From: a virus
Lineage: Duplodnaviria; Heunggongvirae; Uroviricota; Caudoviricetes
DNA length: 31,564 bases
Virus record (IMG/VR): IMGVR_UViG_2802429242_000004
Reading direction: 5' to 3' (one strand)
Below the pieces are notes generated by a model. It was not told the origin of the DNA and made no database searches. It saw nothing but the letters and a program-made list of their open reading frames with translations. A program made the translations under genes and the position numbers. Of this stretch, positions 8,068 to 31,564 are shown one piece after another; the first letter of the stretch is position 1, and every line of letters begins with the position of its first letter.

Positions 8068-8133
8068 CGTGTAATCTTTTACACTATATTTGTGTTGGTT
8101 CTAATCTTGTTATGTGTTTGTTTCGGTGATGGA

Positions 8134-9153
8134 TCATAATGAATAAGTTCGAAAGCGAAATACATCTTCGCCAACCCAACAGTTAATTTCTTTACATCGC
8201 TCTTGGAGGAACGTTAGCTCGTTGCGTACAAAGACTTGTGCTGCTTTTGTTACATCTCCAAATCCTCCTGTGTTGTTGGGCATCATTCCTATCATTTGGG
8301 GAGGCACGCGATGAGCACTCATTAGATCTTCAGCACTTGCTTTTTTGATATTAAAAAAATCGTCCTTCGTTGCCACTTCACTGAGCGGGATAATTTTAAT
8401 GCCGTCGGCTTTCCCCTGCGGGGCATAGAGAAACAGATTTTTAAAGTTATTGCGGCCTTTCGACTTAACCATGTTTTCGCGAAGCATTTCGATATCGTTG
8501 CGATCCTGCACGGCATCGGTGACGTACATGATGTATCCGGCATGTGCGCCATTTTCGTAATACTTGCGGCGGAACAGCGTGGCTGATTCATTCAGCCAGG
8601 CAGAGTTAAGGGCGCTGAGATACTCCGGCAGGCCGTACAGCTCCTGATTAATATCCGGCTCCAGCAGGTGAAACACGGAGCCGGGTGCGAAGGCTGTCGG
8701 CTCGTTGAAGGACGGCACCCACCAGTAAACATCCTCTTCCACACCACGGCGGGTATATTTTGCCGGTGAGGTTTCCAGTCTGATGACCTTACCGGTGGTG
8801 CTGTAGCGCTTTTCCAGAAACGCATTACCGAACACCAGAAAATCCAGCACAAAGCGACTGAAATCCTGCTGGGAAAGCCACGGGTGCGGGATAAACGTTG
8901 AGGCCAGAATATTACGTTTGACGTAAATCGGTGAGCTGTGATGCACGGCAGCACGCAGGCTTTTTGCCAGACCGGTAAAGCTGACCGGTGGCTCATACCA
9001 TCTGCCGTTACTGATGCACTCGACGTAATCCAGAATATCACGGCGGTCGAGTACCGGCACCGGCTCACCAAAGGTGAATGCCTCCATTTTCGGGGCGCTG
9101 GCAGTCATTGTTTTCACCGCTGGCTGCGGTGTTTTCCCTTTTTTCTTACTCAT
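8134..9153 (-). CDS. Q: Portal protein
   Basis: 339-aa ORF, P2 Q position; start overlaps the stop of P by 1 nt. Confidence 0.9.
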   Translation of the reverse strand: MSKKKGKTPQPAVKTMTASAPKMEAFTFGEPVPVLDRRDILDYVECISNGRWYEPPVSFTGLAKSLRAAVHHSSPIYVKRNILASTFIPHPWLSQQDFSRFVLDFLVFGNAFLEKRYSTTGKVIRLETSPAKYTRRGVEEDVYWWVPSFNEPTAFAPGSVFHLLEPDINQELYGLPEYLSALNSAWLNESATLFRRKYYENGAHAGYIMYVTDAVQDRNDIEMLRENMVKSKGRNNFKNLFLYAPQGKADGIKIIPLSEVATKDDFFNIKKASAEDLMSAHRVPPQMIGMMPNNTGGFGDVTKAAQVFVRNELTFLQERCKEINCWVGEDVFRFRTYSL

Positions 9154-10925
9154 CAGTAAAACTCCAGAATGGTGGATGTCAGCGGAGTGCTGATACCGGC
9201 GGTGAGTGGCTCATTTAACAGGGCGTGCATGGTCGCCCAGGCGAGGTCGGCGTGGCTGGCTTCCTCGCTGCGGCTGGCCTCATAGGTGGCGCTGCGTCCG
9301 CTGCTGGTCATGGTCTTGCGGATAGCCATGAACGAGCTGGTGATGTCGGTGGCGCTGACGTCATATTCCAGACAGCCACGGCGGATAACGTCTTTTGCCT
9401 TGAGCACCATTGCAGTTTTCATTTCCGGCGTGTAGCGGATATCGCGCGCGGCGGGATAGAACGAGCGCACGAGCTGGAACACGCCGACACCGAGGCCGGT
9501 GGCATCAATCCCGATGTATTCAACGTTATATTTTTCGGTGAGTTTGCGGATGGATTCCGCCTGGGTGGCAAAGTCCATGCCTTTCCACTGGTGACGCTCA
9601 AGTATTCTGAATTTGCCACCGGCCACCACCGGCGGTGCCAGTACCACGCATCCGGCGCTGTCGCCACGGTGTGACGGGTCGTAACCAATCCATACCGGAC
9701 GTGAGCCGAACGGATTGGTGGCAAACGGCGCATAGTCTTCCCATTCTTCCAGCGTGTCGACCATGCAGCGTTGCAGCTCCTCGAACGGGAACACCGATGC
9801 CTTGTCGTCAACAAATTCACACATGAACAGGTTTTTAAAATCGTCGGCGCTGTTTTCGCGTTTGAGCTGCTCAATGTCGAACAACGTGCAGCCACCTTTC
9901 AGGGCGTCCTCAATGGTGACAATCTGCCGCCACTGGCCGTCCGCACAGAGAAGACCACCGGCAAGGGCGTTATGACTGACGTCGATTTCCACGCGTTCGG
10001 CGGCGCTGGCGCGTCCCCGGTTAAACAGTTCACCCGACCAGAACGGGTAGGCGTCGTGCGCCAGCGTGGACGGGGTGGAGAAATAGGTCGAGCGCAGGTG
10101 ACTCTGTGAGGCCATACCTGATGCCACCTTACGCAGTACCTGAAAATTCGGGATCCAGAAAATCTCGTCGACGTACAGGTCGCCGTTATGGCTCTGCGCG
10201 GTGTTGGAGTTGGTGCCGAGAAAAATCAGTTTTGCGCCGTTATTGCCCAGGACAATCGGGTCACCGGTCAGGTCAACGTCAACCAGCCGGGCAAAGGCGA
10301 TGATGTATTCGCGGAACACATACGCCTGCGTTTTACTGGCCGACAGAAAAATCTGGTTATGGCCGGTTTTCAGGGCGCGCAGCAGCGCCTCGCGGGAAAA
10401 ATAAAACGTCGCGCCAATCTGGCGGGATTTCAGGATATCGCGGATGCGGTGCTCAAGCCCGGCGCGATACCAGTGCAACTGATATTCGAAAGACTGCTCA
10501 AAGAAAATCTGCTCCAGCTTTTCGATGGCCTCGTCACTGAAAAAATTCTTTTTCGGTTTGCGCCGTCCGCCTTTGTTGCGGTTAGCGACGTTCGGATTAA
10601 GGTCTGCCTCGTTGCCGGTCTGACTGTAACGGTTTACCCGTGCCAGTCGTTCAATCTGGCGTCCCAGCAGGTCAATTTCCTTGAAGTCACCGCCGGTTTT
10701 CTGCGGTTTGATGATGAGCTGGGTCAGCCGCGCTTCCAGACTCATTTCGACACGGCTGATGGGGGCAACGCTGTCCCAGCCGTCGCGCTGTTTCCAGCTC
10801 TGCACCGTCGGGCGTTTCATCTGCAACATGGCGGCAATCTGCGGCACGGAAAACCCCTGCCAGTACAGCAGCGCCGCCTGACGACGCGGGTCGTGCAAAA
10901 GAGTGGTGTCTGTGGTGATGGTCAT
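9153..10925 (-). CDS. P: Terminase large (ATPase) subunit
   Basis: 590 aa after trimming the start to MTITTDTTLLHDP (ATG at 10923-10925); P2 P position upstream of Q. Confidence 0.9.
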   Translation of the reverse strand: MTITTDTTLLHDPRRQAALLYWQGFSVPQIAAMLQMKRPTVQSWKQRDGWDSVAPISRVEMSLEARLTQLIIKPQKTGGDFKEIDLLGRQIERLARVNRYSQTGNEADLNPNVANRNKGGRRKPKKNFFSDEAIEKLEQIFFEQSFEYQLHWYRAGLEHRIRDILKSRQIGATFYFSREALLRALKTGHNQIFLSASKTQAYVFREYIIAFARLVDVDLTGDPIVLGNNGAKLIFLGTNSNTAQSHNGDLYVDEIFWIPNFQVLRKVASGMASQSHLRSTYFSTPSTLAHDAYPFWSGELFNRGRASAAERVEIDVSHNALAGGLLCADGQWRQIVTIEDALKGGCTLFDIEQLKRENSADDFKNLFMCEFVDDKASVFPFEELQRCMVDTLEEWEDYAPFATNPFGSRPVWIGYDPSHRGDSAGCVVLAPPVVAGGKFRILERHQWKGMDFATQAESIRKLTEKYNVEYIGIDATGLGVGVFQLVRSFYPAARDIRYTPEMKTAMVLKAKDVIRRGCLEYDVSATDITSSFMAIRKTMTSSGRSATYEASRSEEASHADLAWATMHALLNEPLTAGISTPLTSTILEFY

Positions 10926-19258: not shown

Positions 19259-19862
19259 TTCGCGACTGCTGCCGACCGGCTCATCACCGCTTGAAGTTGC
19301 CGCCGCAAAAGCCTGTGCGGAAATTGAAAAAACGCCGGTCAGTATTCGTGAGCTGTGGAACCCGGACACCTGCCCGGCAAATCTGCTGCCGTGGCTGGCG
19401 TGGTCATTTTCGGTTGACCGCTGGGATGATAAGTGGCCGGAAGCGACAAAACGCGCTGTTATCCGCGATGCGTATTTCATTCACTGCCATAAGGGCACTA
19501 TAGGCGCAATCCGGCGCGTGGTGGAGCCGCTCGGCTATCTGATTGAGGTGAGGGAGTGGTGGCAGCTCAACGAGGAGCCGGGGACGTTCCGCATCGTTGT
19601 TGGCGTGCTTGAGCAGGGTATTACCGAGGAAATGTATCAGGAGCTGGAGCGCCTCGTTGCTGATGCAAAACCGGCAAGCCGCCATCTGACGGGACTGGCT
19701 ATCAGTTTAAGTACAACCGGCAACATTTTTGCCGGTGCGGGATGCTATCACGGTGACGCCCTGACGGTTTATCCCTACACCCCGGAGGCCATTATTGTCG
19801 GAGGGGATTATTTCCCGGCCTCGGCCATTCATTTAATTGATAACCTGAGAGTAAACGCATGA
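19251..19862 (+). CDS. I: Baseplate protein I
   Basis: 203-aa ORF overlapping J upstream and H downstream. Confidence 0.85.
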   Translation: MSDSRLLPTGSSPLEVAAAKACAEIEKTPVSIRELWNPDTCPANLLPWLAWSFSVDRWDDKWPEATKRAVIRDAYFIHCHKGTIGAIRRVVEPLGYLIEVREWWQLNEEPGTFRIVVGVLEQGITEEMYQELERLVADAKPASRHLTGLAISLSTTGNIFAGAGCYHGDALTVYPYTPEAIIVGGDYFPASAIHLIDNLRVNA

Positions 19863-21076
19863 CAGTGAAATACTACGCCATTCTGACTAATCAGGGCGCA
19901 GCACGGCTGGCTAACGCGACGATGCTCGGCAGTAAGCTGAATCTGACGCAAATGGCCGTTGGTGATGCGAATGGTGTCTTGCCGACACCAGATCCGGCAC
20001 AGACAAAACTGATTAACCAGAAACGCATCGCGCCGCTGAATCTTCTGAGTGTTGACCCGAACAACCAGAGCCAGATTATTGCGGAGCAAATCATCCCTGA
20101 GAACGAGGGCGGATTCTGGATCCGTGAGATTGGGCTTTATGATGATGAAGGCGTACTCATTGCGGTGGCGAACTGCCCGGAAACGTACAAACCGCAGTTG
20201 CAGGAAGGCAGTGGTCGTACCCAGACTATCCGCATGATTCTGGTTGTCACGAATACCGAAGCTATTACGCTGAAAATCGACCCGTCGGTGGTACTGGCGA
20301 CCCGTAAATACGTGGATGATGAAGTCCTGGAATTAAGGCTGTATGTGGATGACCAGATGAGAAACCACATTGCCGCACAGGATCCTCATACCCAGTATGC
20401 ACAGAAACATAATCCGACATTTACCGGAGAACCAAAAGCGCCGACGCCTGCCGCAGGAAATAACACCACGCGGATTGCGACCACTGAGTTTGTTCAGGCC
20501 GCTATTACCGCTCTGATTAACGGTGCGCCAGCCACGCTGGACACACTGAAAGAAATTGCCGCAGCCATTAACAATGACCCGAAATTCAGTACCACCATTA
20601 ACAATGCGCTGTCAGGTAAGCAGCCACTGGATGAGACGCTGACTCATTTGAGTGGAAAGGATGTTGCCGGTCTTCTCGCATACCTTGGTTTGGGAGAAGC
20701 GGCAACGAGGAACGTCGGAACGGATACCGGGCAAGTACCAGATATGAGTAGTTTTACAACGGGGCACTCTGGAGCAGCAGACTGGCCGAATCCTAAATCT
20801 GGATGGAGTAAGGGGCCGGATGGGGTAATTACACAATGGGGTATTTTCGGTTTCCCCGTTGGACAGACAGGGACGAATGTTGTTTTCCCGCTACCTTTCC
20901 CCGCGCGGGTCGAATCAATTACACTGACAATGGCAGATATCCAGGAGTCTCTGCTTTCTCCAGCAACCATGCCTGCTTATGGAGTTAACTCAACTGGTAC
21001 TTCAAGAACGGGTTTTACAGCCCGTATGTCAGGCGCCGGTGGGTTTAATCTTTGCTATATAGCGAAAGGGAGATAA
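19859..21076 (+). CDS. H: Tail fibre protein H (constant N-terminus fused to currently expressed variable C-terminus)
   Basis: 405 aa; constant part to about residue 275 (..AGLLAYLGLGE), then the recombination site; the C-terminal ~130 aa lie inside the invertible segment. Confidence 0.85.
   Translation: MTVKYYAILTNQGAARLANATMLGSKLNLTQMAVGDANGVLPTPDPAQTKLINQKRIAPLNLLSVDPNNQSQIIAEQIIPENEGGFWIREIGLYDDEGVLIAVANCPETYKPQLQEGSGRTQTIRMILVVTNTEAITLKIDPSVVLATRKYVDDEVLELRLYVDDQMRNHIAAQDPHTQYAQKHNPTFTGEPKAPTPAAGNNTTRIATTEFVQAAITALINGAPATLDTLKEIAAAINNDPKFSTTINNALSGKQPLDETLTHLSGKDVAGLLAYLGLGEAATRNVGTDTGQVPDMSSFTTGHSGAADWPNPKSGWSKGPDGVITQWGIFGFPVGQTGTNVVFPLPFPARVESITLTMADIQESLLSPATMPAYGVNSTGTSRTGFTARMSGAGGFNLCYIAKGR
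20673..20698. repeat. Left invertase crossover site (hix/gix-like 26-bp site inside H)
   Basis: ttctcgcatacc-tt-ggtttgggagaa: two imperfect inverted 12-bp half-sites around a central dinucleotide; the 15-bp core ttggtttgggagaag is perfectly inverted at 22592-22606. Confidence 0.65.
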
Positions 21077-21080
21077 CAGA

Positions 21081-21524
21081 ATGAATAAAGTTAAAAGTGT
21101 TTACAGCCCGTCCGAAAATGCAATCTACAACGCAGCGCTATATGAAAGTTATATCAAGGAGGGGACATGGCCGCAGGATGGTATTGAAATCAGCGATGAG
21201 GATGCTGTCAGATTTAATGGGGGAAATAAGCCAACAGGAAAAATGCTGGGAATGGTTTCAGGGACCCTTGCATGGGTTGATGAGCCGCCGCTTTCACCAG
21301 AACAGAAAATATCAGATGCAGAAAACATGAAAGCCACATTTCGTGCAAAAGCTGACAGTGAAATATCCTGGCGTCAGGATGCTGTTGATGCTGGTATCGC
21401 AACTGATGAAGAAACTTCAACTCTCACCCAATGGAAGAAATACCGTGTGCTGCTGATGCGTGTTGATACATCAACAGCCCCCGATATTGAATGGCCTACA
21501 CCTCCGGCAGTTCAGGCCAGATGA
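21081..21524 (+). CDS. G: Tail fibre assembly chaperone G (for the current H C-terminus)
   Basis: 147 aa; C-terminal motif TSTAPDIEWP typical of tail-fibre assembly proteins. Confidence 0.82.
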   Translation: MNKVKSVYSPSENAIYNAALYESYIKEGTWPQDGIEISDEDAVRFNGGNKPTGKMLGMVSGTLAWVDEPPLSPEQKISDAENMKATFRAKADSEISWRQDAVDAGIATDEETSTLTQWKKYRVLLMRVDTSTAPDIEWPTPPAVQAR

Positions 21525-22098
21525 CATCCGGCGCGGTGCTGGTATCTGTTGCCGTCACCGCGTCAATGTAATCCAGCACGGCGTTAAGGCGGGTGGTTTC
21601 TGCCTGCGTCAGCCTCCGCCCGGCCTGTAATTTCAGCTGAATCAGACTGATGGAAGCCATTGCAGCATCAATCAGTGACTGGCGCTGTGCTTCTGCCGCG
21701 TCTACTGCGGCGCAATGCTGTGCCTCAGTATCGGTCACCCATTTCTCACCATCCCATTTATCGTATGGCGTTAACGGGGCGATAGTGGTTGTATTTTCGG
21801 GGTAATCACCCGGAGTTGTGATTTCTTTGGCGTCTCCCGTTTCGGTGTTATAGACGATTTCTCCGCGATGGTCTGGCACATATTCCCATGAGTTTAAATC
21901 CGCAGAGCGGCAGATGGCATAACCAGCTTTATATGTTCCTGGTGCATCTAAACAGGAACATGCCGGAATACCGACACCAACAGCAAGATATTCAGTTGAT
22001 GTGGAAATATATTCTCGTGTTTCACCATTATAATTATAGACAGTAATATCCCCCGCCTTCGTGGCAATAAGCTCGCTATTTAATACGGCATTATCCAT
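21496..22098 (-). CDS. Alternative tail fibre assembly chaperone (G')
   Basis: 200 aa on the opposite strand inside the invertible segment; same C-terminal motif (TSTAPDVIWPELP); its 3' end overlaps G convergently. Confidence 0.8.
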   Translation of the reverse strand: MDNAVLNSELIATKAGDITVYNYNGETREYISTSTEYLAVGVGIPACSCLDAPGTYKAGYAICRSADLNSWEYVPDHRGEIVYNTETGDAKEITTPGDYPENTTTIAPLTPYDKWDGEKWVTDTEAQHCAAVDAAEAQRQSLIDAAMASISLIQLKLQAGRRLTQAETTRLNAVLDYIDAVTATDTSTAPDVIWPELPEV

Positions 22099-22606
22099 TA
22101 TGCAGCCCTCACGATGTAATTAAATGAAAGGTTACGAGGGCGCATTGATATCCATGCCCCGGTAAAATTATCCTCCGCTGTCCTTTGAGTACCCGTTATG
22201 GAGTTATCTGCTGATGCAGGAACATAATCGCTATTATTTCCTGCTTTAGGATTAGCTGGGTTTCCAACAGTTATAACAGAATCAGCAGTAGCAAAAGCGA
22301 TACCTACTTTGACATTAGTATTCAGATCGTAACCGTAATAATCCTGCAAAGCTGTACGAATAAATGTTGCAGCCTGACCACTTAGCAATGAACGCCCCGT
22401 ATCAATCCCTCTAGAATCATCCCAGCCACGAATAAACTCACCACGTAAATCAGGCAATTTATTTGTCGGGTAAGCCTTTGCCAGTTCCGGGTATTCTTCA
22501 GCAGAAAAAGCTGCTCCGTTGCATTTCAGCCAGCCTGTTGGAGGTGTCTCTGAAGGCCACGGAACAGGTGCACCAACAGGTAATGCTGAACCTTCTCCCA
22601 AACCAA
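22098..22606 (-). CDS. Alternative (silent) tail fibre C-terminal segment H'
   Basis: Minus-strand reading frame continuous from the right crossover site (encodes ..LGLGEGSALPVGAPVPWP..); no own promoter or N-terminus, so expressed only after inversion. Confidence 0.75.
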
Positions 22607-22618
22607 CGTTTATGAAAA
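22593..22618. repeat. Right invertase crossover site (hix/gix-like)
   Basis: ttctcccaaacc-aa-cgtttatgaaaa; half-site TTCTCCCAAACC resembles the Gin/Hin half-site pattern (recalled), central AA. Confidence 0.65.
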
Positions 22619-22673
22619 TGCAGAGATAATGGCTAACTGGCATCATCCCCGGTTTTTATTCAGGGGATTGATC

Positions 22674-23267
22674 ATGCTTATTGGCTATATACGCGTGTCA
22701 ACAAATGACCAGAACACGGAATTGCAGCGTAACGCGCTGGAGTGCGCAGGATGCGAGCGGATTTTTGAGGATAAAATCAGTGGCACGAAGTCCGACCGAC
22801 CGGGACTGAAAAAACTGCTCAGAACATTATCAGCAGGTGACACTCTGGTAGTCTGGAAGCTGGACCGGCTGGGGCGTAGTATGCGGCATCTGGTCATTCT
22901 GGTTGAGGAGCTGCGCGAACGCGGCGTTAATTTTCGCAGCCTGACAGATGCTATTGATACCAGCACGCCGATGGGGCGTTTTTTCTTTCATGTGATGGGT
23001 GCCCTGGCTGAAATGGAGCGAGAACTCATTGTCGAGCGGACACGCGCCGGACTGGAAGCGGCCAGAGCCAAAGGGCGTATTGGTGGCAGACGTCCGAAGC
23101 TCACCGCGAGTGAGTGGGAACAGGCAGGACGGTTGCTGGCTGCGGGTGAATCACGTCAACGCGTGGCGCTGATTTTTGATATTGGCCTGTCCACGCTCTA
23201 TAAAAAATTCCCCTCATCAGCGGCAAAGAATAAATTGTGTCATCCCTTAGCCAACCGGGACAAATAG
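22674..23267 (+). CDS. Site-specific DNA invertase, serine recombinase (Hin/Gin/Cin/Pin family)
   Basis: N-terminus MLIGYIRVSTNDQ with the catalytic serine; resolvase/invertase catalytic domain plus C-terminal HTH; immediately next to the right crossover site. Start trimmed from the track's 22629. Confidence 0.9.
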   Translation: MLIGYIRVSTNDQNTELQRNALECAGCERIFEDKISGTKSDRPGLKKLLRTLSAGDTLVVWKLDRLGRSMRHLVILVEELRERGVNFRSLTDAIDTSTPMGRFFFHVMGALAEMERELIVERTRAGLEAARAKGRIGGRRPKLTASEWEQAGRLLAAGESRQRVALIFDIGLSTLYKKFPSSAAKNKLCHPLANRDK

Positions 23268-23326
23268 CCTGACATCTCCGGCACAACTGAAAATAACACT
23301 CACCCATTAACCACGGAGTTAAACGG

Positions 23327-24517
23327 ATGAGTGACTATCATCACGGCGTGCAGGTGCTGGAGATTAACGACGGCACCCGCGTCATTTCCACCGTATCCAC
23401 CGCCATTGTTGGCATGGTCTGCACGGCCAGCGATGCGGATGCGGAAACCTTCCCCGTCAATAAACCGGTGCTGATCACCAATGTGCAGAGCGCGATTGCA
23501 AAGGCCGGTAAAAAAGGCACGCTGGCGGCATCGTTGCAGGCCATCGCTGACCAGTCAAAACCGGTCACCGTTGTCGTGCGCGTGGAAGACGGCACCGGCG
23601 ACGACGAAGAAACGAAACTCGCGCAGACCGTTTCCAATATCATCGGCACCACCGACGAAAACGGTCAGTACACCGGGCTGAAAGCCCTGCTGGCGGCGGA
23701 GTCGGTAACCGGTGTTAAACCGCGTATTCTCGGCGTGCCGGGACTGGATACCAAAGAGGTGGCTGTTGCACTGGCATCAGTCTGTCAGAAGCTGCGCGCT
23801 TTCGGGTATATCAGCGCATGGGGCTGTAAAACTATTTCCGAGGTGAAAGCCTACCGCCAGAATTTCAGCCAGCGTGAGCTGATGGTCATCTGGCCGGATT
23901 TCCTCGCATGGGATACGGTCACCAGTACCACCGCCACCGCGTATGCCACCGCCCGTGCGCTGGGTCTGCGCGCTAAAATCGACCAGGAGCAGGGCTGGCA
24001 TAAAACGCTGTCCAACGTCGGGGTAAACGGTGTTACCGGCATCAGCGCCTCTGTATTCTGGGATTTGCAGGAGTCCGGCACCGATGCTGACCTGCTTAAC
24101 GAGTCAGGCGTCACTACGCTGATTCGCCGTGACGGTTTCCGATTCTGGGGTAACCGTACCTGCTCTGATGACCCGCTGTTCCTCTTTGAAAACTACACCC
24201 GCACCGCGCAGGTGCTGGCCGACACGATGGCTGAGGCGCACATGTGGGCGGTGGACAAGCCCATCACCGCAACGCTGATTCGCGACATCGTTGACGGCAT
24301 CAATGCCAAATTCCGTGAGCTGAAAACAAACGGCTATATCGTGGATGCGACCTGCTGGTTCAGCGAAGAATCCAACGATGCGGAAACCCTCAAGGCCGGA
24401 AAACTGTATATCGACTACGACTATACCCCGGTGCCTCCTCTTGAAAACCTGACCCTGCGCCAGCGTATTACCGATAAATACCTGGCAAATCTGGTCACCT
24501 CGGTTAACAGCAATTAA
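23327..24517 (+). CDS. FI: Tail sheath protein
   Basis: 396 aa, same length and position as P2 FI. Confidence 0.92.
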   Translation: MSDYHHGVQVLEINDGTRVISTVSTAIVGMVCTASDADAETFPVNKPVLITNVQSAIAKAGKKGTLAASLQAIADQSKPVTVVVRVEDGTGDDEETKLAQTVSNIIGTTDENGQYTGLKALLAAESVTGVKPRILGVPGLDTKEVAVALASVCQKLRAFGYISAWGCKTISEVKAYRQNFSQRELMVIWPDFLAWDTVTSTTATAYATARALGLRAKIDQEQGWHKTLSNVGVNGVTGISASVFWDLQESGTDADLLNESGVTTLIRRDGFRFWGNRTCSDDPLFLFENYTRTAQVLADTMAEAHMWAVDKPITATLIRDIVDGINAKFRELKTNGYIVDATCWFSEESNDAETLKAGKLYIDYDYTPVPPLENLTLRQRITDKYLANLVTSVNSN

Positions 24518-24529
24518 GGAGCCTGACCG

Positions 24530-25048
24530 ATGGCAATGCCGCGCAAACTCAAGTTAATGAACGTCTTTCTGAACGGCTACAGCTATCAGGGCGTCGCGAA
24601 GTCCGTCACGCTACCAAAACTGACCCGTAAGCTCGAAAACTATCGCGGTGCGGGAATGAACGGCAGCGCACCGGTAGACCTCGGCCTTGATGACGATGCG
24701 CTGTCAATGGAGTGGTCGCTCGGTGGCTTCCCGGATTCGGTTATCTGGGAGCTTTACGCCGCAACCGGTGTGGATGCCGTGCCGATTCGTTTTGCAGGCT
24801 CTTACCAGCGCGACGATACCGGCGAAACGGTGGCCGTCGAAGTGGTCATGCGTGGACGTCAGAAAGAAATCGACACCGGCGAGGGTAAACAGGGAGAAGA
24901 CACTGAGTCGAAAATCTCCGTGGTCTGCACCTATTTCCGGCTGACGATGGACGGTAAGGAGCTGGTCGAAATCGACACCATCAACATGATTGAGAAGGTG
25001 AACGGCGTCGACCGGCTGGAGCAACACCGCCGCAATATCGGCCTGTGA
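24530..25048 (+). CDS. FII: Tail tube protein
   Basis: 172 aa, same length and position as P2 FII. Confidence 0.92.
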   Translation: MAMPRKLKLMNVFLNGYSYQGVAKSVTLPKLTRKLENYRGAGMNGSAPVDLGLDDDALSMEWSLGGFPDSVIWELYAATGVDAVPIRFAGSYQRDDTGETVAVEVVMRGRQKEIDTGEGKQGEDTESKISVVCTYFRLTMDGKELVEIDTINMIEKVNGVDRLEQHRRNIGL

Positions 25049-25104
25049 TTCTCATCCGGTCAGCCTGGCTGACCGGTTAACCCCGATTCAGAAGTGAGAA
25101 AACC

Positions 25105-25380
25105 ATGAACAAAGAAAACGTCATTACCCTGGACAATCCGGTCAAACGTGGTGAGCAGGTTATCGAACAGGTCACGCTGATGAAACCTAACGCCGGGACG
25201 CTGCGCGGTGTCAGTCTGGCTGCGGTCGCGAACTCCGAAGTCGATGCACTGATTAAGGTGCTGCCGCGCATGACCGCACCGATGCTGACCGAGCAGGAAG
25301 TCGCCGCGCTGGAACTGCCTGACCTTGTGGCGCTGGCCGGTAAGGTGGTCGGTTTTTTGTCGCCGAACTCGGTGCAGTGA
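25105..25380 (+). CDS. E: Tail assembly chaperone E
   Basis: 91 aa; slippery T6G near its 3' end. Confidence 0.85.
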   Translation: MNKENVITLDNPVKRGEQVIEQVTLMKPNAGTLRGVSLAAVANSEVDALIKVLPRMTAPMLTEQEVAALELPDLVALAGKVVGFLSPNSVQ

Positions 25381-25531
25381 CGTTTCCGAAAAATCTCTCG
25401 GTCGATGACCTGATGGCGGATGTGGCTGTGATATTTCACTGGCCGCCATCAGAACTGTATCCCATGAGCCTGACCGAACTCATCACATGGCGCGAAAAGG
25501 CGCTCCGGCGAAGCGGAAACACGAATGAGTA
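25105..25531 (+). CDS. E+E' tail assembly chaperone made by programmed -1 frameshift (approximate 3' end)
   Basis: Slippery tttttt-g at 25353-25359; the -1 frame stays open for about 57 codons (..VAELGAVTFPKNLSVDDLMADVAVIFHWPPSELYPMSLTELITW..) up to the start of T. End coordinate is approximate. Confidence 0.55.
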
Positions 25532-27972
25532 ACAATGTAAAATTACAGGTATTGCTCAGGGCTGTTGACCAGGCATCCCGCCCGTTTAAATCCATCCGTA
25601 CAGCGAGCAGGTCGCTGTCGGGGGATATCCGGGAAACACAAAAATCACTGCGCGAGCTGAACGGTCACGCATCCCGTATTGAGGGATTCCGCAAGACCAG
25701 TGCACAGCTCGCCGTGACTGGTCATGCACTTGAAAAGGCACGGCAGGAGGCCGAAGCCCTTGCCACACAGTTTAAAAATACCGAACGTCCGACCCGTGCT
25801 CAGGCGAAAGTGCTGGAATCCGCAAAGCGTGCGGCGGAGGACTTACAGGCGAAATATAACCGCCTGACGGATTCCGTTAAACGCCAGCAGCGGGAACTGG
25901 CCGCTGTGGGAATTAATACCCGCAATCTTGCACATGATGAGCAGGGACTGAAAAACCGTATCAGTGAAACCACCGCACAGCTTAACCGTCAGCGCGACGC
26001 GCTGGCGCGTGTCAGTGCGCAACAGGCAAAACTTAACGCAGTCAAACAGCGTTATCAGGCCGGAAAGGAACTGGCCGGAAATATGGCCTCAGTGGGCGCT
26101 GCCGGTGTGGGGATTGCGGCGGCGGGAACGATGGCCGGAGTTAAGTTGCTGATGCCCGGTTATGAGTTTGCGCAGAAAAACTCAGAATTGCAGGCTGTGC
26201 TCGGTGTGGCAAAAGACTCCGCCGAAATGGCTGCACTACGCAAGCAGGCGCGCCAGCTCGGCGACAATACCGCCGCCTCGGCGGATGATGCAGCCGGTGC
26301 GCAGATTATTATCGCGAAAGCCGGTGGGGATGTTGATGCCATTCAGGCGGCAACGCCGGTCACGCTGAATATGGCGCTGGCGAACCGTCGCACGATGGAA
26401 GAAAATGCCGCCCTGCTGATGGGGATGAAATCCGCCTTTCAGCTTTCAAACGATAAGGTCGCTCATATCGGGGATGTTCTCTCCATGACGATGAACAAAA
26501 CCGCCGCCGATTTTGATGGCATGAGCGATGCGCTGACCTATGCCGCACCTGTGGCAAAAAATGCCGGTGTCAGCATTGAAGAAACCGCGGCAATGGTCGG
26601 GGCGCTGCATGATGCAAAAATCACAGGCTCAATGGCGGGGACGGGAAGCCGTGCCGTGTTAAGCCGCCTGCAGGCACCGACGGGAAAAGCATGGGATGCA
26701 CTGAAAGAGCTTGGTGTGAAAACCTCAGACAGCAAGGGGAATACCCGACCAGTATTTACCATTCTGAAAGAAATGCAGGCCAGTTTTGAGAAAAACCGGC
26801 TCGGTACTGCCCAGCAGGCTGAATACATGAAAACCATTTTCGGGGAGGAGGCCAGTTCAGCCGCCGCCGTGCTGATGACTGCCGCCTCAACCGGAAAGCT
26901 GGACAAACTGACCGCTGCGTTTAAAGCCTCAGACGGGAAGACCGCCGAGCTGGTAAATATCATGCAGGACAACCTAGGCGGTGACTTTAAAGAGTTTCAG
27001 TCCGCTTATGAGGCAGTGGGGACTGACCTGTTTGACCAGCAGGAAGGCGCGCTGCGTAAGCTCACGCAGACGGCCACAAAGTATGTGTTAAAACTCGACG
27101 GCTGGATCCAGAAAAACAAATCACTGGCGTCAACCATCGGCATCATTGTCGGTGGTGCACTGGCGCTGACTGGTGTCATCGGTGCCATTGGCCTCGTAGC
27201 CTGGCCGGTTATCACCGGCATCAATGCCATCATCGCGGCAGCAGGCGCAATGGGGACAATCCTCACGACGGTTGGCAGTGCTGTTATGACCGCTATTGGG
27301 GCGATTAGCTGGCCGGTTGTGGCTGTGGTGGCCGCCATTGTCGCCGGGGCGTTGCTTATCCGTAAATACTGGGATCCTGTCAGCGCATTCTTTGGCGGTG
27401 TGGTGGAAGGGCTGAAAGCGGCATTTGCGCCGGTGGAGGAACTGTTCACGCCACTTAAGCCGGTGTTTGACTGGCTGGGCGAAAAGTTACAGGCCGCGTG
27501 GCAGTGGTTTAAAAATCTGATTGCCCCGGTTAAAGCCACACAGGACACCCTGAACCGTTGCCGTGACACGGGCGTCATATTCGGGCAGGCACTGGCTGAC
27601 GCGTTGATGCTGCCGCTTAATGCGTTCAACAAACTGCGCAGTGGTATTGACTGGGTACTGGAAAAACTCGGTGTTATCAACAAAGAGTCAGACACACTTG
27701 ACCAGACCGCCGCAAGGACTCATGCCGCCACGTATGGCACCGGTGGGTATATTCCGGCGACCAGCTCTTATGCAGGCTATCGGGCTTATCAGCCGGTCAC
27801 GGCACAGGCTGGCCGCTCTTATGTGGACCAGAGTAAAAACGAATATCATATCAACCTGACGGGCGGTACTGCGCCGGGGACACAGCTTGACCGCCAGTTA
27901 CAGGATGCGCTCGAAAAATACGAGCGGGATAAACGTGCGCGCGCCCGTGCCAGCATGATGCATGACGGTTAA
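25525..27972 (+). CDS. T: Tail tape measure protein
   Basis: 815 aa; coiled-coil-rich N-terminal half and Gly/Ala-rich hydrophobic segment; P2 T position. Confidence 0.92.
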   Translation: MSNNVKLQVLLRAVDQASRPFKSIRTASRSLSGDIRETQKSLRELNGHASRIEGFRKTSAQLAVTGHALEKARQEAEALATQFKNTERPTRAQAKVLESAKRAAEDLQAKYNRLTDSVKRQQRELAAVGINTRNLAHDEQGLKNRISETTAQLNRQRDALARVSAQQAKLNAVKQRYQAGKELAGNMASVGAAGVGIAAAGTMAGVKLLMPGYEFAQKNSELQAVLGVAKDSAEMAALRKQARQLGDNTAASADDAAGAQIIIAKAGGDVDAIQAATPVTLNMALANRRTMEENAALLMGMKSAFQLSNDKVAHIGDVLSMTMNKTAADFDGMSDALTYAAPVAKNAGVSIEETAAMVGALHDAKITGSMAGTGSRAVLSRLQAPTGKAWDALKELGVKTSDSKGNTRPVFTILKEMQASFEKNRLGTAQQAEYMKTIFGEEASSAAAVLMTAASTGKLDKLTAAFKASDGKTAELVNIMQDNLGGDFKEFQSAYEAVGTDLFDQQEGALRKLTQTATKYVLKLDGWIQKNKSLASTIGIIVGGALALTGVIGAIGLVAWPVITGINAIIAAAGAMGTILTTVGSAVMTAIGAISWPVVAVVAAIVAGALLIRKYWDPVSAFFGGVVEGLKAAFAPVEELFTPLKPVFDWLGEKLQAAWQWFKNLIAPVKATQDTLNRCRDTGVIFGQALADALMLPLNAFNKLRSGIDWVLEKLGVINKESDTLDQTAARTHAATYGTGGYIPATSSYAGYRAYQPVTAQAGRSYVDQSKNEYHINLTGGTAPGTQLDRQLQDALEKYERDKRARARASMMHDG

Positions 27973-27986
27973 GGAGGTGACGAAAA

Positions 27987-28466
27987 ATGATGCTCGCGTT
28001 AGGTATGTTTGTTTTTATGCGCCAGACGCTGCCACACCAGACCATGCAGCGTGAATCAGATTATCTCTGGCCGTCAAATTCCCGTATAGGTAAACGGGAT
28101 GCCTACCAGTTTCTCGGTGTGGGTGAGGAAAACATCACGCTTGCCGGTGTGCTTTATCCCGAACTGACCGGCGGCAAGCTGACGATGACCACGCTCAGGC
28201 TGATGGCCGAGGAAGGCCGGGCGTGGCCGTTGCTGGATGGCACCGGCATGATTTACGGCATGTATGTCATCAGCAGGGTGAGTGAAACAGGGAGTATTTT
28301 CTTTGCAGACGGCACACCCCGGAAAATTGATTTTACGCTGTCGCTCACCCGCGTTGATGAATCACTGGCCGCGCTTTATGGCGATATCGGTAAACAGGCG
28401 GAATCGCTCATCGGTAAGGCTGGCAGTATGGCGACTAAATTCACGGGTATGACGGGGGCGGGATAA
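27987..28466 (+). CDS. U: Tail protein U
   Basis: 159 aa, same length and position as P2 U. Confidence 0.88.
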   Translation: MMLALGMFVFMRQTLPHQTMQRESDYLWPSNSRIGKRDAYQFLGVGEENITLAGVLYPELTGGKLTMTTLRLMAEEGRAWPLLDGTGMIYGMYVISRVSETGSIFFADGTPRKIDFTLSLTRVDESLAALYGDIGKQAESLIGKAGSMATKFTGMTGAG

Positions 28467-29629
28467 TGCTGGATGCACTGACATTTGATGCAGGCAGTAC
28501 GCTGACGCCGGATTACATGCTGATGCTCGACAGCAGGGATATTACCGGCAATATCAGCGACCGTCTGATGAGCATGACCCTGACGGATAACCGGGGCTTT
28601 GAGGCTGACCAGCTTGATATTGAACTGGACGATGCCGACGGGCAGGTCGGGCTGCCGGTTCGTGGCGCTGTCCTGACGGTGTATATCGGCTGGAAAGGTT
28701 TTGCCCTGGTATGCAAAGGGAAATTTACCGTTGATGAGGTTGAACACCGGGGCGCACCGGATGTGGTCACCATCCGCGCCCGGAGTGCAGATTTTCGCGG
28801 GACGCTCAATTCCCGCCGGGAAGGCTCATGGCATGACACCACGCTCGGTGCGATTGTTGAGGCGATAGCCTCCCGTAACAGGCTGGAAGCCAGTGTCGCT
28901 CCGTCACTGGCCAGAATTAAAATTCCGCACATCGACCAGTCGCAGGAGTCTGATGCAAAATTCCTGACCCGCCTTGCAGAACGCAACGGCGGTGAGGTGT
29001 CGGTAAAAATGGGAAAACTGTTGTTTCTCAAAGCGGGGCAGGGGGTGACGGCCAGCGGTAAAAAAATCCCGCAGATTACCATCACCCGCAGTGACGGCGA
29101 CCGCCATCATTTTGCGATTGCTGACCGTGGAGCCTATACCGGCGTAACGGCAAAGTGGCTTCACACCAAAGACCCGAAGCCGCAAAAGCAGAAGGTAAAA
29201 CTGAAACGCAAAAAGAAAGAGAAACACCTGCGCGCACTGGAGCACCCGAAAGCGAAACCGGTCACGCAGAAGAAAGCGCCAAAAGTACCGGAAGCGCGCG
29301 AAGGTGAATACATGGCCGGTGAGGCTGACAACGTTTTTGCCCTGACCACGGTATATGCCACGAAAGCGCAGGCCATGCGCGCCGCTCAGGCGAAGTGGGA
29401 TAAGCTGCAACGGGGCGTGGCGGAGTTCTCCATCAGCCTGGCTACCGGTCGGGCAGATATTTACACGGAAACGCCAGCCAGAGTGTCTGGCTTTAAGCGC
29501 GTCATAGACGAGCAGGACTGGACAATCACTAAGGTGACACATTTTCTGAATAATAGCGGCTTCACGACGTCCCTGGAGCTTGAGGTCAGGCTTTCTGATG
29601 TGGAGTACGAAACAGAAGGTAATGAGTGA
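28466..29629 (+). CDS. D: Tail protein D (late gene D)
   Basis: 387 aa, same length and position as P2 D; lysine-rich internal segment. Confidence 0.9.
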   Translation: MLDALTFDAGSTLTPDYMLMLDSRDITGNISDRLMSMTLTDNRGFEADQLDIELDDADGQVGLPVRGAVLTVYIGWKGFALVCKGKFTVDEVEHRGAPDVVTIRARSADFRGTLNSRREGSWHDTTLGAIVEAIASRNRLEASVAPSLARIKIPHIDQSQESDAKFLTRLAERNGGEVSVKMGKLLFLKAGQGVTASGKKIPQITITRSDGDRHHFAIADRGAYTGVTAKWLHTKDPKPQKQKVKLKRKKKEKHLRALEHPKAKPVTQKKAPKVPEAREGEYMAGEADNVFALTTVYATKAQAMRAAQAKWDKLQRGVAEFSISLATGRADIYTETPARVSGFKRVIDEQDWTITKVTHFLNNSGFTTSLELEVRLSDVEYETEGNE

Positions 29630-29710
29630 CGTGTTTTATTTATCTGTTTGTTTTATAAGGATAAATTAACTAAAATGGCACCATCAACAAAACCGGAAGA
29701 GGTGCTCGCG

Positions 29711-29929
29711 ATGTTTCATTGTCCTTTATGCCAGCATGCCGCACATGCGCGTACAAGCCGCTATATCACTGACACGACAAAAGAGCGTTATCACCAGTGT
29801 CAGAACGTGAATTGCAGCGCCACGTTCATCACTTATGAGTCTGTACAGCGATACATTGTGAAGCCGGGAGAAGTCCACGCCGTGAGGCCGCACCCGTTGC
29901 CGTCAGGGCAGCAAATTATGTGGATGTAA
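29711..29929 (+). CDS. ogr: Ogr late-gene transcription activator (C4 zinc finger)
   Basis: 72 aa after trimming to MFHCPLCQHAAHAR; CxxC-x22-CxxC zinc finger; matches P2 Ogr as recalled. Confidence 0.9.
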   Translation: MFHCPLCQHAAHARTSRYITDTTKERYHQCQNVNCSATFITYESVQRYIVKPGEVHAVRPHPLPSGQQIMWM

Positions 29930-29939
29930 TTACAAACAG

Positions 29940-29969
29940 AAAGCCCCTCAGTCGAGGGGCTTTTTTTGT
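29940..29969 (+). terminator. Rho-independent terminator after ogr
   Basis: Stem agcccctc (29942-29949) / gaggggct (29954-29961), 4-nt loop, T7 run. Confidence 0.8.
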
Positions 29970-29970
29970 C

Positions 29971-29996
29971 GATGTGGTCAATGTGTGGACGTGACC
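29971..29996. repeat. Candidate Int arm-type sites on the ogr-side arm
   Basis: tgtggtca ... tgtgtggac direct repeats related to the tgtggacact repeats at 10-30. Confidence 0.35.
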
Positions 29997-30031
29997 AGAA
30001 ATAAATCCTTTTATTTCAATTTGTTGTACGT

Positions 30032-30058
30032 AAAAAATAAGCCCGTGTAAGGGAGATT
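30032..30058. other. attR: attR core (P2-type 27-bp core aaaaaataagcccgtgtaagggagatt)
   Basis: Matches the P2 attP/attB core as I recall it; lies at the phage/host junction and coincides with the cyaR terminator. Confidence 0.7.
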
Positions 30059-30118
30059 ACACAGGCTAAGGAGGTGGTTCCTGGTACAGCTAGCATTTTA
30101 TGGGTTATGTTTTTCAGC
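30032..30118 (-). ncRNA. cyaR: CyaR (RyeE) Hfq-dependent sRNA
   Basis: Minus strand reads gctgaaaaacataacccataaaatgctagctgtaccaggaaccacctccttagcctgtgtaatctcccttacacgggcttatttttt (87 nt), matching CyaR as recalled, including the anti-SD-like CCACCUCCUUA and a terminator hairpin plus U-run. Confidence 0.8.
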
Positions 30119-30139
30119 GAAACAGATAATAACCTTAAT

Positions 30140-30159
30140 AAATGCAGCCGTATGTGATC
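30140..30159 (-). promoter_or_regulatory. Candidate CRP site and promoter of cyaR
   Basis: atgca-N6-tgtga upstream of cyaR and a tattat -10 about 7 bp before the cyaR 5' end; CyaR is known to be CRP-activated. Confidence 0.45.
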
Positions 30160-30202
30160 GGTTTCTAAGAATTTTCTATCCGGGAAAAATAATCGAAATG
30201 AA

Positions 30203-31564
30203 TCACTTACCGTGCGGGTTACGCGTGGTTTCCCCGGAGAAATTACGCATCAGCAGTGCGTAATTCAGCTCGAGATCCTGCGGAACCGGGAGCCACACGG
30301 TATAGCCATCGCCAGGCGCGACCGGCATCGCTTCACCTTTGGCGTTTTCCATGTGCTCAAGGGTAAAGTTGATATTGCCCTGTGGCGTCATCAGTTCCAG
30401 GCTGTCGCCAACGGAGAATTTATTTTTCACCGCTACGGCTGCCAGAGAGCCTTTACGCTCACCGGTAAACTCTCCAACAAACTGCTGGCGGTCAGAAACG
30501 GAATAACCGTATTCGTAGTTCTGGTAATCGTCGTGAGTATGACGACGCAGGAAACCTTCGGTGTAACCACGATGCGCCAGGCCTTCCAGTGTTTCCAGCA
30601 GGCTGGTGTCGAACGGTTTGCCCGCAGCGGCGTCATCGATAGCTTTACGATAAACCTGCGCGGTACGTGCACAATAGTAGAAAGATTTAGTGCGGCCTTC
30701 GATTTTCAGCGAATGCACGCCCATTTTGGTCAGGCGTTCAACGTGGGCGATGGCGCGCAGATCTTTCGAGTTCATGATGTAAGTGCCGTGCTCATCTTCA
30801 AACGCGGTCATATACTCGCCCGGGCGCTGGGCTTCTTCGATCATAAACACTTTGTCGGTTGGCGCACCGATACCCAGCGTCGGCTCGACGTTTTGCACCG
30901 GAATCGGCTCGTATTTGTGTACGATGTTGCCAACGTCATCTTCTTTCCCTTCCTGCACGTTGTACTCCCAACGGCAGGCGTTGGTGCAGGTGCCCTGGTT
31001 TGGATCGCGTTTGTTGATGTAGCCAGAGAGCAGGCAGCGGCCGGAGTAGGCCATGCACAGCGCGCCGTGAACGAAGATTTCAAGCTCCATATCCGGAACC
31101 TGATTGCGGATCTCTTCAATCTCTTCCAGCGACAGCTCGCGGGAGAGGATCACGCGGGTCAACCCCATTTGCTGCCAGAATTTCACCGTCGCCCAGTTTA
31201 CGGCGTTGGCCTGCACGGAAAGGTGGATCGGCATTTCAGGGAAGTGTTCACGCACCAGCATAATCAGCCCCGGATCGGACATAATCAGTGCGTCCGGCCC
31301 CATTTCCACCACCGGTTTCAGATCACGGATAAAGGTTTTTAGCTTGGCATTGTGTGGCGCAATGTTGACCACGACATAAAACTTTTTCCCCAGCGCGTGG
31401 GCTTCATTGATGCCGAGCTGGAGATTTTCGTGGTTAAATTCGTTGTTGCGCACACGCAGGGAGTAACGCGGTTGCCCCGCATAAACAGCATCTGCGCCAT
31501 AAGCGAAAGCGTAACGCATATTTTTCAGCGTTCCCGCCGGGGAAAGGAGTTCCGGTTTAAACAT
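30203..31564 (-). CDS. yegQ: Host U32-family peptidase-like protein YegQ (RlhA)
   Basis: 453-aa ORF starting MFKPELLSPAGTLKNMRYAFAYGADAVYAG, recognised as E. coli YegQ; codon usage and GC differ from the cargo; convergent with ogr as in the K-12 yegQ-ogrK locus. Confidence 0.85.
   Translation of the reverse strand: MFKPELLSPAGTLKNMRYAFAYGADAVYAGQPRYSLRVRNNEFNHENLQLGINEAHALGKKFYVVVNIAPHNAKLKTFIRDLKPVVEMGPDALIMSDPGLIMLVREHFPEMPIHLSVQANAVNWATVKFWQQMGLTRVILSRELSLEEIEEIRNQVPDMELEIFVHGALCMAYSGRCLLSGYINKRDPNQGTCTNACRWEYNVQEGKEDDVGNIVHKYEPIPVQNVEPTLGIGAPTDKVFMIEEAQRPGEYMTAFEDEHGTYIMNSKDLRAIAHVERLTKMGVHSLKIEGRTKSFYYCARTAQVYRKAIDDAAAGKPFDTSLLETLEGLAHRGYTEGFLRRHTHDDYQNYEYGYSVSDRQQFVGEFTGERKGSLAAVAVKNKFSVGDSLELMTPQGNINFTLEHMENAKGEAMPVAPGDGYTVWLPVPQDLELNYALLMRNFSGETTRNPHGK

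Follow-up and report, generated by a model that had tools for sequence, protein, structure and literature searches.

Invertible tail-fibre segments have been described in several phages and prophages. The G segment of phage Mu, with its invertase Gin, and the C segment of P1, with Cin, follow one logic, in which a constant fibre part (Sc) is combined with either of two tips (Sv/Sv') that have cognate chaperones (U/U'). In the e14 prophage of Escherichia coli K-12, inversion beside pinE was shown experimentally (PMC4272514), and in the P2-like prophages of EPEC E2348/69 coexisting orientations were demonstrated by sequencing and PCR, including an inversion of approximately 1.8 kb (Goldberg et al. 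2014, PMC4272514). Invertases in the Z/fun hotspot of P2-like phages were noted in a 2024 preprint (bioRxiv 10.1101/2024.10.15.618418), and Ein-mediated inversion is reported to alter the killing range of carotovoricin (Nguyen 2001, as cited in later work).

The DNA analysed here is a viral stretch of 31,564 nucleotides (the window). It holds a P2-like (Peduovirus) prophage whose tail fibre very probably has a working inversion switch of the Gin/Pin type (Din family). A preliminary description of this DNA implied that the arrangement was new, and this part is withdrawn: the switch is an ordinary and already known one, annotated with the same layout in Escherichia phage pro483 and in other records, common in E. 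coli, shown to flip in P2-like prophages, and located in the hotspot covered by the preprint.

P2 backbone and fibre cassettes

The prophage was approximately 97% identical to P2 over 75% of window positions 1-25000, and approximately 97% identical over positions 24000-30058, ending at the attP core. The annotation of P2 reads H, G, terminator, fun(Z), pF and FI and contains no invertase, in keeping with the earlier statement that P2 itself has a fixed fibre. The P2 gene order and a high identity were kept across the replication, head, lysis and tail modules, with H and G upstream and FI downstream of the Z/fun slot, and homology to P2 resumed at position 23247, inside the pF activator site; the extra genes therefore occupy the Z/fun slot. 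The silent cassette and the invertase fill the position of fun(Z), as had been proposed under the logic of the Mu G and P1 C segments. The features of the locus, in window coordinates, are as follows.

19859-21076, plus strand: tail fibre gene H as now expressed, 405 aa; Pfam Phage_tail_fib (residues 1-150) and Gp53-like_C (residues 320-404)
19859-20686, plus strand: constant part of H, codons 1-276
20673-20698: left 26-bp site, TTCTCGCATACC TT GGTTTGGGAGAA; predicted crossover dinucleotide at 20685-20686
20687-21076, plus strand: variable C-terminal tip of H
21081-21524, plus strand: tail fibre assembly chaperone of the expressed tip, 147 aa; Pfam Caudo_TAP (9.8e-33)
21496-22098, minus strand: second assembly chaperone, TfaE-like, of the silent tip, 200 aa; Pfam Caudo_TAP (3e-32)
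22098 to about 22604, minus strand: silent alternative C-terminal tip of H, about 168 codons; Collar domain
22593-22618: right 26-bp site, TTCTCCCAAACC AA CGTTTATGAAAA; predicted crossover dinucleotide at 22605-22606
22674-23267, plus strand: Gin/Pin/Cin/Hin-group serine DNA invertase, 197 aa; Pfam Resolvase (5.6e-53, residues 3-135) and HTH_7 (1.1e-12, residues 138-181)
22695-22758: candidate recombinational enhancer in the 5' end of the invertase gene, two G-N13-C 15-mers placed by alignment with Mu gin

One strand of the segment carries the 3' end of H and a chaperone gene, and the other carries the second chaperone gene and the silent fibre 3' end. The open reading frames and Pfam domains thus bear out the opposite-strand chaperone and alternative fibre C-terminus, followed by a serine invertase, of the preliminary description. 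The N-terminal part of H was collinear with that of relatives and 97-98% identical as far as 20699. The two chaperone genes run tail to tail with an overlap of 29 bp, and the second matches the tfaE region of the K-12 e14 prophage at 89% nucleotide identity. The two tips are dissimilar (45 identical residues of 129/168) and contain different Pfam domains. Searches of the fibre and chaperone proteins against NCBIfam gave no match.

The silent tip has no start of its own that is used by relatives, and is read only after inversion. When the segment was inverted in silico, codons 1-276 of H were joined in frame to the silent tip, giving a 444-aa ORF whose product was identical at 442/444 residues to the annotated tail protein WP_097397759.1 of E. 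coli CUPF09 (translated from CUPF09). Inversion would accordingly fuse the constant N-terminus, earlier put at about 275 aa, to the other tip and its chaperone, as had been claimed.

Recombination sites, invertase and candidate enhancer

The sequence TTGGTTTGGGAGAAG was found exactly twice in the window, at 20685-20699 on the plus strand and at 22592-22606 on the minus strand, as a perfect 15-bp inverted repeat; in shuffled sequence 0.04 matches were expected, and two copies arose in 0/100 shuffles. In the repeat search the pair grew to 27 nt at 81% identity (20673-20699 and 22592-22618), and the 15 bp form the inner portion of two sites of 26 bp, each matching the hix/gix pattern TTCTCNNAAACC-NN-GGTTTNNGAGAA. 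The repeat search and codon mapping upheld its position in frame at the LGLGE codons of H and at the 5' end of the silent segment. The perfect 15-bp core, taken in the preliminary description as the switch site, is real, but the functional unit is the 26-bp site and not the 15 bp alone.

The two sites are inverted relative to each other and enclose a segment of approximately 1.9 kb. On the top strand the core reads TT in the left site and AA in the right site, which gives the same asymmetric 2-bp core once inverted. The half-sites match TTnTCnnAAACC, as do the half-sites of Mu gix, and the outer half-sites are unlike each other (TTCTCGCATACC vs TTTTCATAAACG). The left site encodes residues L-A-Y-L-G-L-G-E of H, with the central TT inside codon 276, and was also present in 7/8 P2-like relatives scanned; the copy in GF8 has one base of the inner half changed. 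The right site is an exact match to the site beside pinE in e14 of E. coli K-12. Further sites were sought by allowing up to 3 mismatches to the 26-bp consensus and 1 mismatch to the central AAACC-NN-GGTTT, and no further hix/gix-type site was found in the 31.5-kb window (chance expectation 0.00). A third site, which would make a multi-state shufflon as in one EPEC P2-like locus, was rejected, the scan having returned only the two sites and a chance-level match at 105-116.

The invertase is full length and intact, with an N-terminal resolvase catalytic domain and a C-terminal helix-turn-helix, and its translation most likely begins at 22674, which gives the 197 aa annotated in relatives, rather than at the upstream ATG at 22629. 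It was 75.6% identical to Mu Gin, 85.9% identical to e14 PinE, and 99% identical to the invertase of the flipped relative L006. Comparison with PDB sequences using phmmer gave E=8.8e-95 over residues 1-184 for Gin (3UJ3) and only 9e-33 for gamma-delta resolvase, and NCBIfam returned below-cutoff matches only, to other serine recombinase families. The alignment asked for in the preliminary description thus agrees with its family assignment, and by sequence, domains and sites the protein belongs to the DNA invertase (Hin/Gin/Cin/Pin, 'Din') subgroup of small serine recombinases. Inactivating mutations were also looked for; the catalytic Ser9 and the conserved R7, D64, R65 and R68, aligned with Gin, were all present. 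Residues H106 and M114 are as in wild-type Mu Gin, whereas the crystallised Gin (3UJ3) has Val at 114.

Two candidate Fis 15-mers lie in the 5' end of the invertase gene, at 22695-22709 (GTGTCAACAAATGAC) and 22744-22758 (GCGCAGGATGCGAGC). Their counterparts in the alignment with Mu gin are GTATCAACAAATGAC and GTGCAGGATGTGAAC; the centre-to-centre spacing is 49 bp in both genes, and the second 15-mer of the window is G+C-rich in its centre. Placement of an enhancer at 22695-22758 is suggested by the alignment with gin and by where the enhancers of gin and hin are placed in the literature (references listed in PMC3798978).

Orientation in relatives and alternative explanations

The same element occurs in both orientations among public E. 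coli genomes, more than 3,000 of which share parts of the module. The junction obtained by inversion in silico was contiguous in E. coli CUPF09 at 99.3% identity, and HCM-28C-2 and TUM2330 have the entire two-cassette element flipped; strains 144 and 90-9281 have it in the orientation of the window. Where the element is flipped, the change of strand maps to 20682-20699 and 22592-22609. Between GF8 and GF75, and between 613 and 571, the locus differs only by a precise inversion of 1841 bp, the compared flanks (3.5 and 3.7 kb) being 99.97% identical; the sites of these strain pairs are those of the window apart from one SNP, and their invertase is 98% identical to that of the window. Between GF8 and GF75 this inner half-site SNP travelled with the segment and the outer halves stayed, so that the crossover is placed within a few bases of the site centre, the SNP being 6 bp inside it. 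The window itself is a single sequence in one orientation, and flipping was seen in its near-identical relatives. Some assemblies have frameshift-flagged genes at this locus.

Three alternatives were weighed against a working switch. Both orientations could be found among genomes without any action of the invertase, as products of general (RecA) recombination at the short repeats or of faulty assembly. Inversion can take place between inverted repeats whatever their origin, and the flagged genes would fit assembly errors, but this explanation is very hard to sustain. Perfect homology extends over just 15 bp (17/18), which is very short for RecA-dependent exchange; the crossover falls between the outer half-site and the SNP 6 bp inside the centre; the same event occurred independently in several lineages; and an intact dedicated invertase adjoins the segment. 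Inversion at the identical e14 site has, moreover, been experimentally assigned to Pin (PMC4272514). It is just as improbable that the silent tip is expressed alone from an ATG at 22646/22643 as a separate 182-aa protein, with both tips made at once and inversion unneeded. A mechanical ORF with an ATG does cross the right site (22098-22646, minus strand), and annotators of genomes often call such fragments genes; the extra 14 codons, however, come from the spacer that separates the site from the invertase gene, and this ATG beyond the right site is most likely spurious. The fragment also lacks the N-terminal Phage_tail_fib domain, which by homology attaches the fibre to the baseplate and is carried only by full-length H, and flipped relatives read the same sequence as the C-terminus of a full-length 444-aa fibre. 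A simple scan of 20600-23400 found no sigma-70-like promoter on the minus strand, which is weak evidence against separate expression; within the segment the scan gave one weak plus-strand match (22145-22174), fewer than in shuffled sequence, and was uninformative.

The module could also be a frozen remnant that is intact in sequence and no longer switches in this prophage, owing to a weak enhancer, lack of invertase expression, or slightly diverged outer half-sites. This is unlikely, although the single orientation visible in the window, the difference between the outer half-sites, the G+C-rich second Fis-like 15-mer, and the result of the simple scan, which found no promoter-like site upstream of the invertase, would all be compatible with it. 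Against it, relatives that have demonstrably flipped share both site sequences with the window and have an invertase 98-99% identical to its own, the conserved catalytic residues are all present, and the Mu sites likewise have unlike half-sites. A working Din-type switch is preferred to these alternatives because the sites and the repeat exceed chance, the gene content and domains fit and the invertase is full length; because the inverted fibre is in frame at 444 aa and both orientations occur in relatives; and because the right site is identical to the e14 pinE site and the EPEC P2-like prophages show coexisting orientations.

Proposed mechanism and comparison with known switches

By homology with Gin, Hin and Pin, invertase dimers would bind both 26-bp sites and then synapse them, probably assisted by host Fis bound to an enhancer within the 5' part of the invertase's own gene. 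Both sites would be cut at the central TT/AA dinucleotide, the strands would be rotated, and the segment of approximately 1.9 kb, from about 20687 to 22604, would flip. In the orientation seen, the late operon would read the constant codons 1-276 of H with the Gp53-like tip (405 aa), followed by its chaperone; in the inverted orientation it would read the same constant part with the Collar-domain tip (444 aa) and then the TfaE-like chaperone. From a lysogen population two kinds of virion would then emerge, with different receptor-binding tips. Switching activity in this particular prophage, its dependence on Fis, and a change of host range between orientations are presumed by analogy with the known systems. 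For annotation, H is best treated as a phase-variable fibre gene with two C-termini, and the minus-strand fragment as neither a separate gene nor a pseudogene; prediction of host range from the prophage sequence should weigh both tips.

More tentatively, the 26-bp site may also be a seam at which the module as a 2.4-kb whole (site, two cassettes, site, invertase) passes from one prophage type to another, unrelated one, although this is doubtful. The idea is raised because homology to an e14-type prophage with a Mu-like baseplate sets in at 20674, a single base into the left site, and because P2-like relatives have exchanged cassettes, the breakpoints lying at the sites. If it is true, the module would be more than a two-state switch, and prophages resident in the same cell could actively transfer tail-fibre genes through exchange mediated by the invertase. 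Even then it would extend a known proposal, which dates to Sandmeier's work of the 1990s as mentioned in PMC8986868.

The e14 P segment and PinE of K-12 are the nearest in sequence, with an identical right 26-bp site, an 85.9% identical invertase, and the TfaE-like chaperone region at 89%. The e14-type layout is the same as here, a tip and chaperone being followed by a second chaperone and tip on the other strand and then by the invertase, and in e14 the convergent chaperone genes overlap by 29 bp as in the window. An e14-type prophage (GPEC620-622) was 95.4% identical over window positions 20674-22142, from the first base of the left site or one base inside it. The e14-type module, however, follows Mu-like or YmfQ-type baseplate genes, whereas here it follows V-W-J-I-H of P2; the constant N-terminal fibre part of e14-type elements is unrelated to that of H in the window, and the K-12 copy has a different first cassette (StfP/TfaP).

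As in the Mu G, P1 C and e14 P segments, the constant 5' fibre part lies outside the segment, and two opposed 3' parts with their own chaperones lie inside it. The locus also shares with Mu G and Gin the 26-bp sites, the asymmetric 2-bp core, and the position of the invertase gene immediately beyond the right site; the enhancer region lies within that gene in Mu, as does the candidate enhancer here. The Mu segment is longer (approximately 3 kb, against approximately 1.9 kb here), the Mu sites have TC/GA in place of TT/AA at the core, the Mu fibre tips are unrelated to those of the window, and the carrier here is a P2-type prophage rather than a transposable phage.

Escherichia phage pro483 has the same genome type and the same slot, annotated as I, tail fiber, assembly, (assembly and fibre on the opposite strand), DNA invertase and sheath. 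Both of its 26-bp sites are identical to those of the window, its invertase is 95.9% and its backbone 96.7% identical, and its expressed tip cassette differs, with no nucleotide match over 20706-21461 and 320/405 identical residues in H; this difference is ordinary cassette mosaicism. DNA invertases are also annotated in other Peduovirus records, namely an 'Escherichia phage P2' record (O157:H43 T22), S164, 500465-2 and Klebsiella KP12. The EPEC E2348/69 P2-like loci are likened to the window by layout, an invertase and inverted repeats giving alternative C-termini of one tail fibre, but one of these loci has three repeats and four variants, compared with two sites and two variants here. The Ein switch of carotovoricin, a Pectobacterium tailocin whose gene cluster includes P2-family tail genes, is likewise compared by layout. 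The locus thus confirms that a Din-type fibre switch is often present in the P2-like Z/fun slot and is shared with prophages of the e14 type, as already documented.

Gene layout, recombination sites and invertase

The fibre segment is very probably part of a working Gin/Pin-type invertible tail-fibre switch in a P2-like prophage.

Features of the segment, in window coordinates
19859-21076, + strand: H tail fibre, 405 aa; Phage_tail_fib at the N-terminus, Gp53-like_C at the other end
20673-20698: left 26-bp site, TTCTCGCATACC-TT-GGTTTGGGAGAA, dyad form as in hix and gix sites
21081-21524, + strand: first chaperone, Caudo_TAP
21496-22098, - strand: second chaperone, Caudo_TAP, TfaE-like
22098 to about 22604, - strand: fibre C-terminus (silent tip), Collar domain
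22593-22618: right 26-bp site, TTCTCCCAAACC-AA-CGTTTATGAAAA, dyad form as in hix and gix sites
22674 (most likely start), + strand: invertase, Resolvase and HTH_7 domains
22695-22709 and 22744-22758: 15-mers with G and C at their ends, in the 5' end of the invertase gene, from alignment with gin

With its most likely start the invertase has 197 aa, as it does in the annotation of all relatives. The chaperone genes are convergent and overlap tail-to-tail by 29 bp (21496-21524), an overlap also present in pro483 (an annotated P2-like Escherichia phage), in prophage e14 of E. coli K-12, and in other annotated relatives with intact chaperone genes. Both chaperones end in a conserved DTSTAPD..WP motif. 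Within 19800-23000, the fibre tips and chaperones have a G+C of 0.41-0.47, compared with 0.55-0.59 in the P2 backbone, a difference in keeping with horizontal exchange of the cassettes. About 230 bp of the silent tip (22143-22373) was about 97.6% conserved in CUPF09, Ecol_656, and strain 1409, and gave no nucleotide match in pro483, strains 144, 90-9281, HCM-28C-2, and TUM2330, or e14; this points to mosaicism inside a tip, besides that between cassettes.

The preliminary description had reported a perfect 15-bp inverted repeat, in frame at the LGLGE codons of H, and an opposite-strand chaperone and silent fibre C-terminus followed by a serine invertase. These observations were confirmed. The window (31,564 bases) contains two exact copies of the repeat, TTGGTTTGGGAGAAG, and no more, at 20685-20699 (+) and 22592-22606 (-); a shuffle control gave 0.04 expected matches, with two copies in 0 of 100 shuffles. 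A repeat finder lengthened the pair to 27 nt at 81%, and the 15-mer forms the inner part of both 26-bp sites. The left site encodes H residues L-A-Y-L-G-L-G-E, its central TT falling within codon 276. Allowing up to three mismatches, a search with a degenerate 26-bp consensus matched only the left and right sites in the window (chance expectation 0.00), and a central-motif search of the window gave a single extra, chance-level match at 105-116; the number of sites is therefore two. The TT/AA core is non-palindromic, and in Hin- and Gin-type systems such a core fixes the alignment of the two sites.

Membership of the invertase in the Hin/Gin/Cin family, also proposed initially, was borne out by alignment. 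Residues 1-184 matched crystallised Mu Gin (3UJ3, 4M6F) with an E value of about 1e-94, compared with a weaker match of about 1e-32 to gamma-delta resolvase, and 75.6% of the sequence is identical to Mu Gin, against 85.9% for the PinE protein of e14. The enzyme is intact: R7, Ser9, D64, R65, and R68 are all present, H106 and M114 are those of wild-type Mu Gin, and no inactivating change was seen. Over its first 100 nt the gene aligns with gin and pinE. The gin counterparts of the two 15-mers are GTATCAACAAATGAC and GTGCAGGATGTGAAC, with an equal 49-bp spacing in both genes. As described in PMC3798978 and its references, the gin and hin enhancers lie within the invertase genes and each contain two 15-bp core Fis sites. 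On the basis of this location and the aligned 15-mers, a candidate recombinational enhancer with putative Fis sites is proposed at 22695-22758.

Inversion in silico and in natural relatives

In-silico inversion of 20700-22591 produced a 444-aa ORF from the H start codon, identical at 442 of 444 positions to the annotated tail protein of E. coli CUPF09, which supports the earlier interpretation that inversion fuses the constant part of H, in frame, to another tip. A 1.1-kb query spanning the inverted junction was contiguous in three E. coli chromosomes (99.3%, 98.6%, and 98.5%), in which the other cassette differs and homology breaks at 20699 and 22592. A 3.1-kb query of the whole region (at least 80% coverage) recovered seven records in the orientation of the window and five flipped. 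Strains 144 and 90-9281 are collinear with the window throughout, HCM-28C-2 and TUM2330 only in the flanks, with 20682-22609 on the opposite strand.

Two pairs of near-identical strains, E. coli GF8 and GF75 and strains 613 and 571, provide the sharpest evidence, a natural record of recent switching. The members of each pair come from one study, the same country, and the same or a similar source. Across the 9-kb loci compared, the members of a pair share flanks of 99.97% identity and differ only by inversion of the intervening 1841 bp. A SNP in the inner half-site (GGTTTTGGAGAA versus GGTTTGGGAGAA) is found at the other site in the partner strain and the outer half-sites have not moved, so that the crossover must lie in the short stretch, a few bases long, that separates the outer half-site from the SNP. 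This swap matches the outcome expected of a cut at the central dinucleotide.

Homology with Gin, Hin, and Pin suggests that dimers of the invertase on both sites would synapse, probably at a Fis-bound enhancer, and inversion would follow by cleavage at the TT/AA core, strand rotation, and religation. The late operon would then read H(1-276) with one of two ends: the Gp53-like tip, together with its chaperone, or the Collar tip, together with the TfaE-like chaperone. The comparisons show the gene and site layout, the preserved frame, an intact invertase, and inversion in close relatives. We infer that the window's lysogen switches, that switching depends on Fis, and that the two states differ in host range.

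It is unlikely that the module is a frozen remnant that no longer switches here, since relatives have flipped whose sites are those of the window apart from the SNP and whose invertase is 98-99% identical. Production of the inversions by RecA-mediated exchange or assembly artefacts is very improbable, given that perfect homology extends over just 15 bp, that the mapped crossover position is the site centre, and that inversion has recurred independently. Equally hard to credit is expression of the minus-strand ORF on its own from the ATG at 22646: a scan found no promoter-like site, the product would be a fragment without the N-terminal Phage_tail_fib domain, and in relatives the same sequence is read as the C-terminal part of a full-length fibre.

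The P2-like prophage and its probable host

The window represents an integrated prophage of the P2-like type. Identity to P2 was about 97% over 75% of the first 25 kb and about 97% across 24000-30058, where the match stops at the P2 attP core. The H region of P2 gave just two short, weak nucleotide matches, and the H proteins are about 42% identical. P2 is annotated as I-H-G-terminator-fun(Z)-pF-FI, with no invertase, and its homology restarts at 23247, within the pF activator site; the second cassette and invertase therefore occupy the fun(Z) position, as the preliminary description had placed them.

Host DNA beyond 30058 (30032-31564) encodes YegQ/TrhP (Peptidase_U32), and ogrK is annotated adjoining yegQ/trhP beneath the match in the best-matching E. 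coli genomes. Identity of this flank was 90-95% in nearly all of 5,424 matching E. coli genomes, 94.6% to one representative of E. ruysiae, and 92.5% to E. albertii, from which the host is probably a non-coli Escherichia lineage. Record CP169086.1, titled Enterobacter hormaechei B17-3, also reached 94.6%, the level of E. ruysiae, compared with about 82% in records of Enterobacter bugandensis and Enterobacter sp. EA-1, and may be mislabelled or carry Escherichia-like DNA. Between the replication and packaging genes, 6283-8030 encodes a 433-aa AAA_15/AAA_21 ATPase (best PADLOC matches PDC-M29A, 2e-31, and AriA, 2e-25) followed by a 145-aa protein with a weak PDC-M29B match, likely a two-gene anti-phage defence cargo; P2 has old and tin at this position.

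Relation to known invertible systems

The module is most closely related to the P segment of e14 with PinE, which shares the layout and has an identical site beside pinE corresponding to the right site. Experiments have established inversion at the e14 pin site, with both orientations present together in cultures (PMC4272514). In pro483, annotated with a tail fiber, assembly protein, reversed assembly protein and fibre, DNA invertase, and sheath, both sites are identical to those of the window and the invertase is 95.9% identical. Similar layouts are annotated in an 'Escherichia phage P2' record from O157:H43 T22, in S164 and 500465-2, and in Klebsiella phages, and 3,091 of 5,426 complete E. 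coli genomes match some part of the region. E. coli GPEC620-622 has an e14-type prophage, its baseplate genes Mu-like, that contains the same cassettes at 95.4% identity over 20674-22142 and 84.3% over 22417-23212. Because its homology begins at about the first base of the left site (20674), prophages of unrelated types share the module, and a breakpoint coincides with the recombination site. The 26-bp sites may also serve as joints at which cassettes, or the entire module, pass from one prophage to an unrelated one; if true, this would be a modest advance, the proposal itself being old.

For two invertible loci in the P2-like prophages of EPEC E2348/69, Goldberg et al. (2014) measured the coexistence of orientations and tied these to tail-fibre variation (PMC4272514), and a 2024 preprint states that the Z/fun hotspot of P2-like phages often encodes a DNA invertase with adjacent genes inverted (bioRxiv 10.1101/2024.10.15.618418). 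Carotovoricin, a tailocin with P2-family tail genes in its gene cluster, offers a further precedent in its Ein switch. The finding is thus not new; the present copy adds one further allele combination to those of a common module. As initially proposed, its logic is that of the Mu G and P1 C segments: a constant fibre part, two tips each with a chaperone, and an adjoining invertase.
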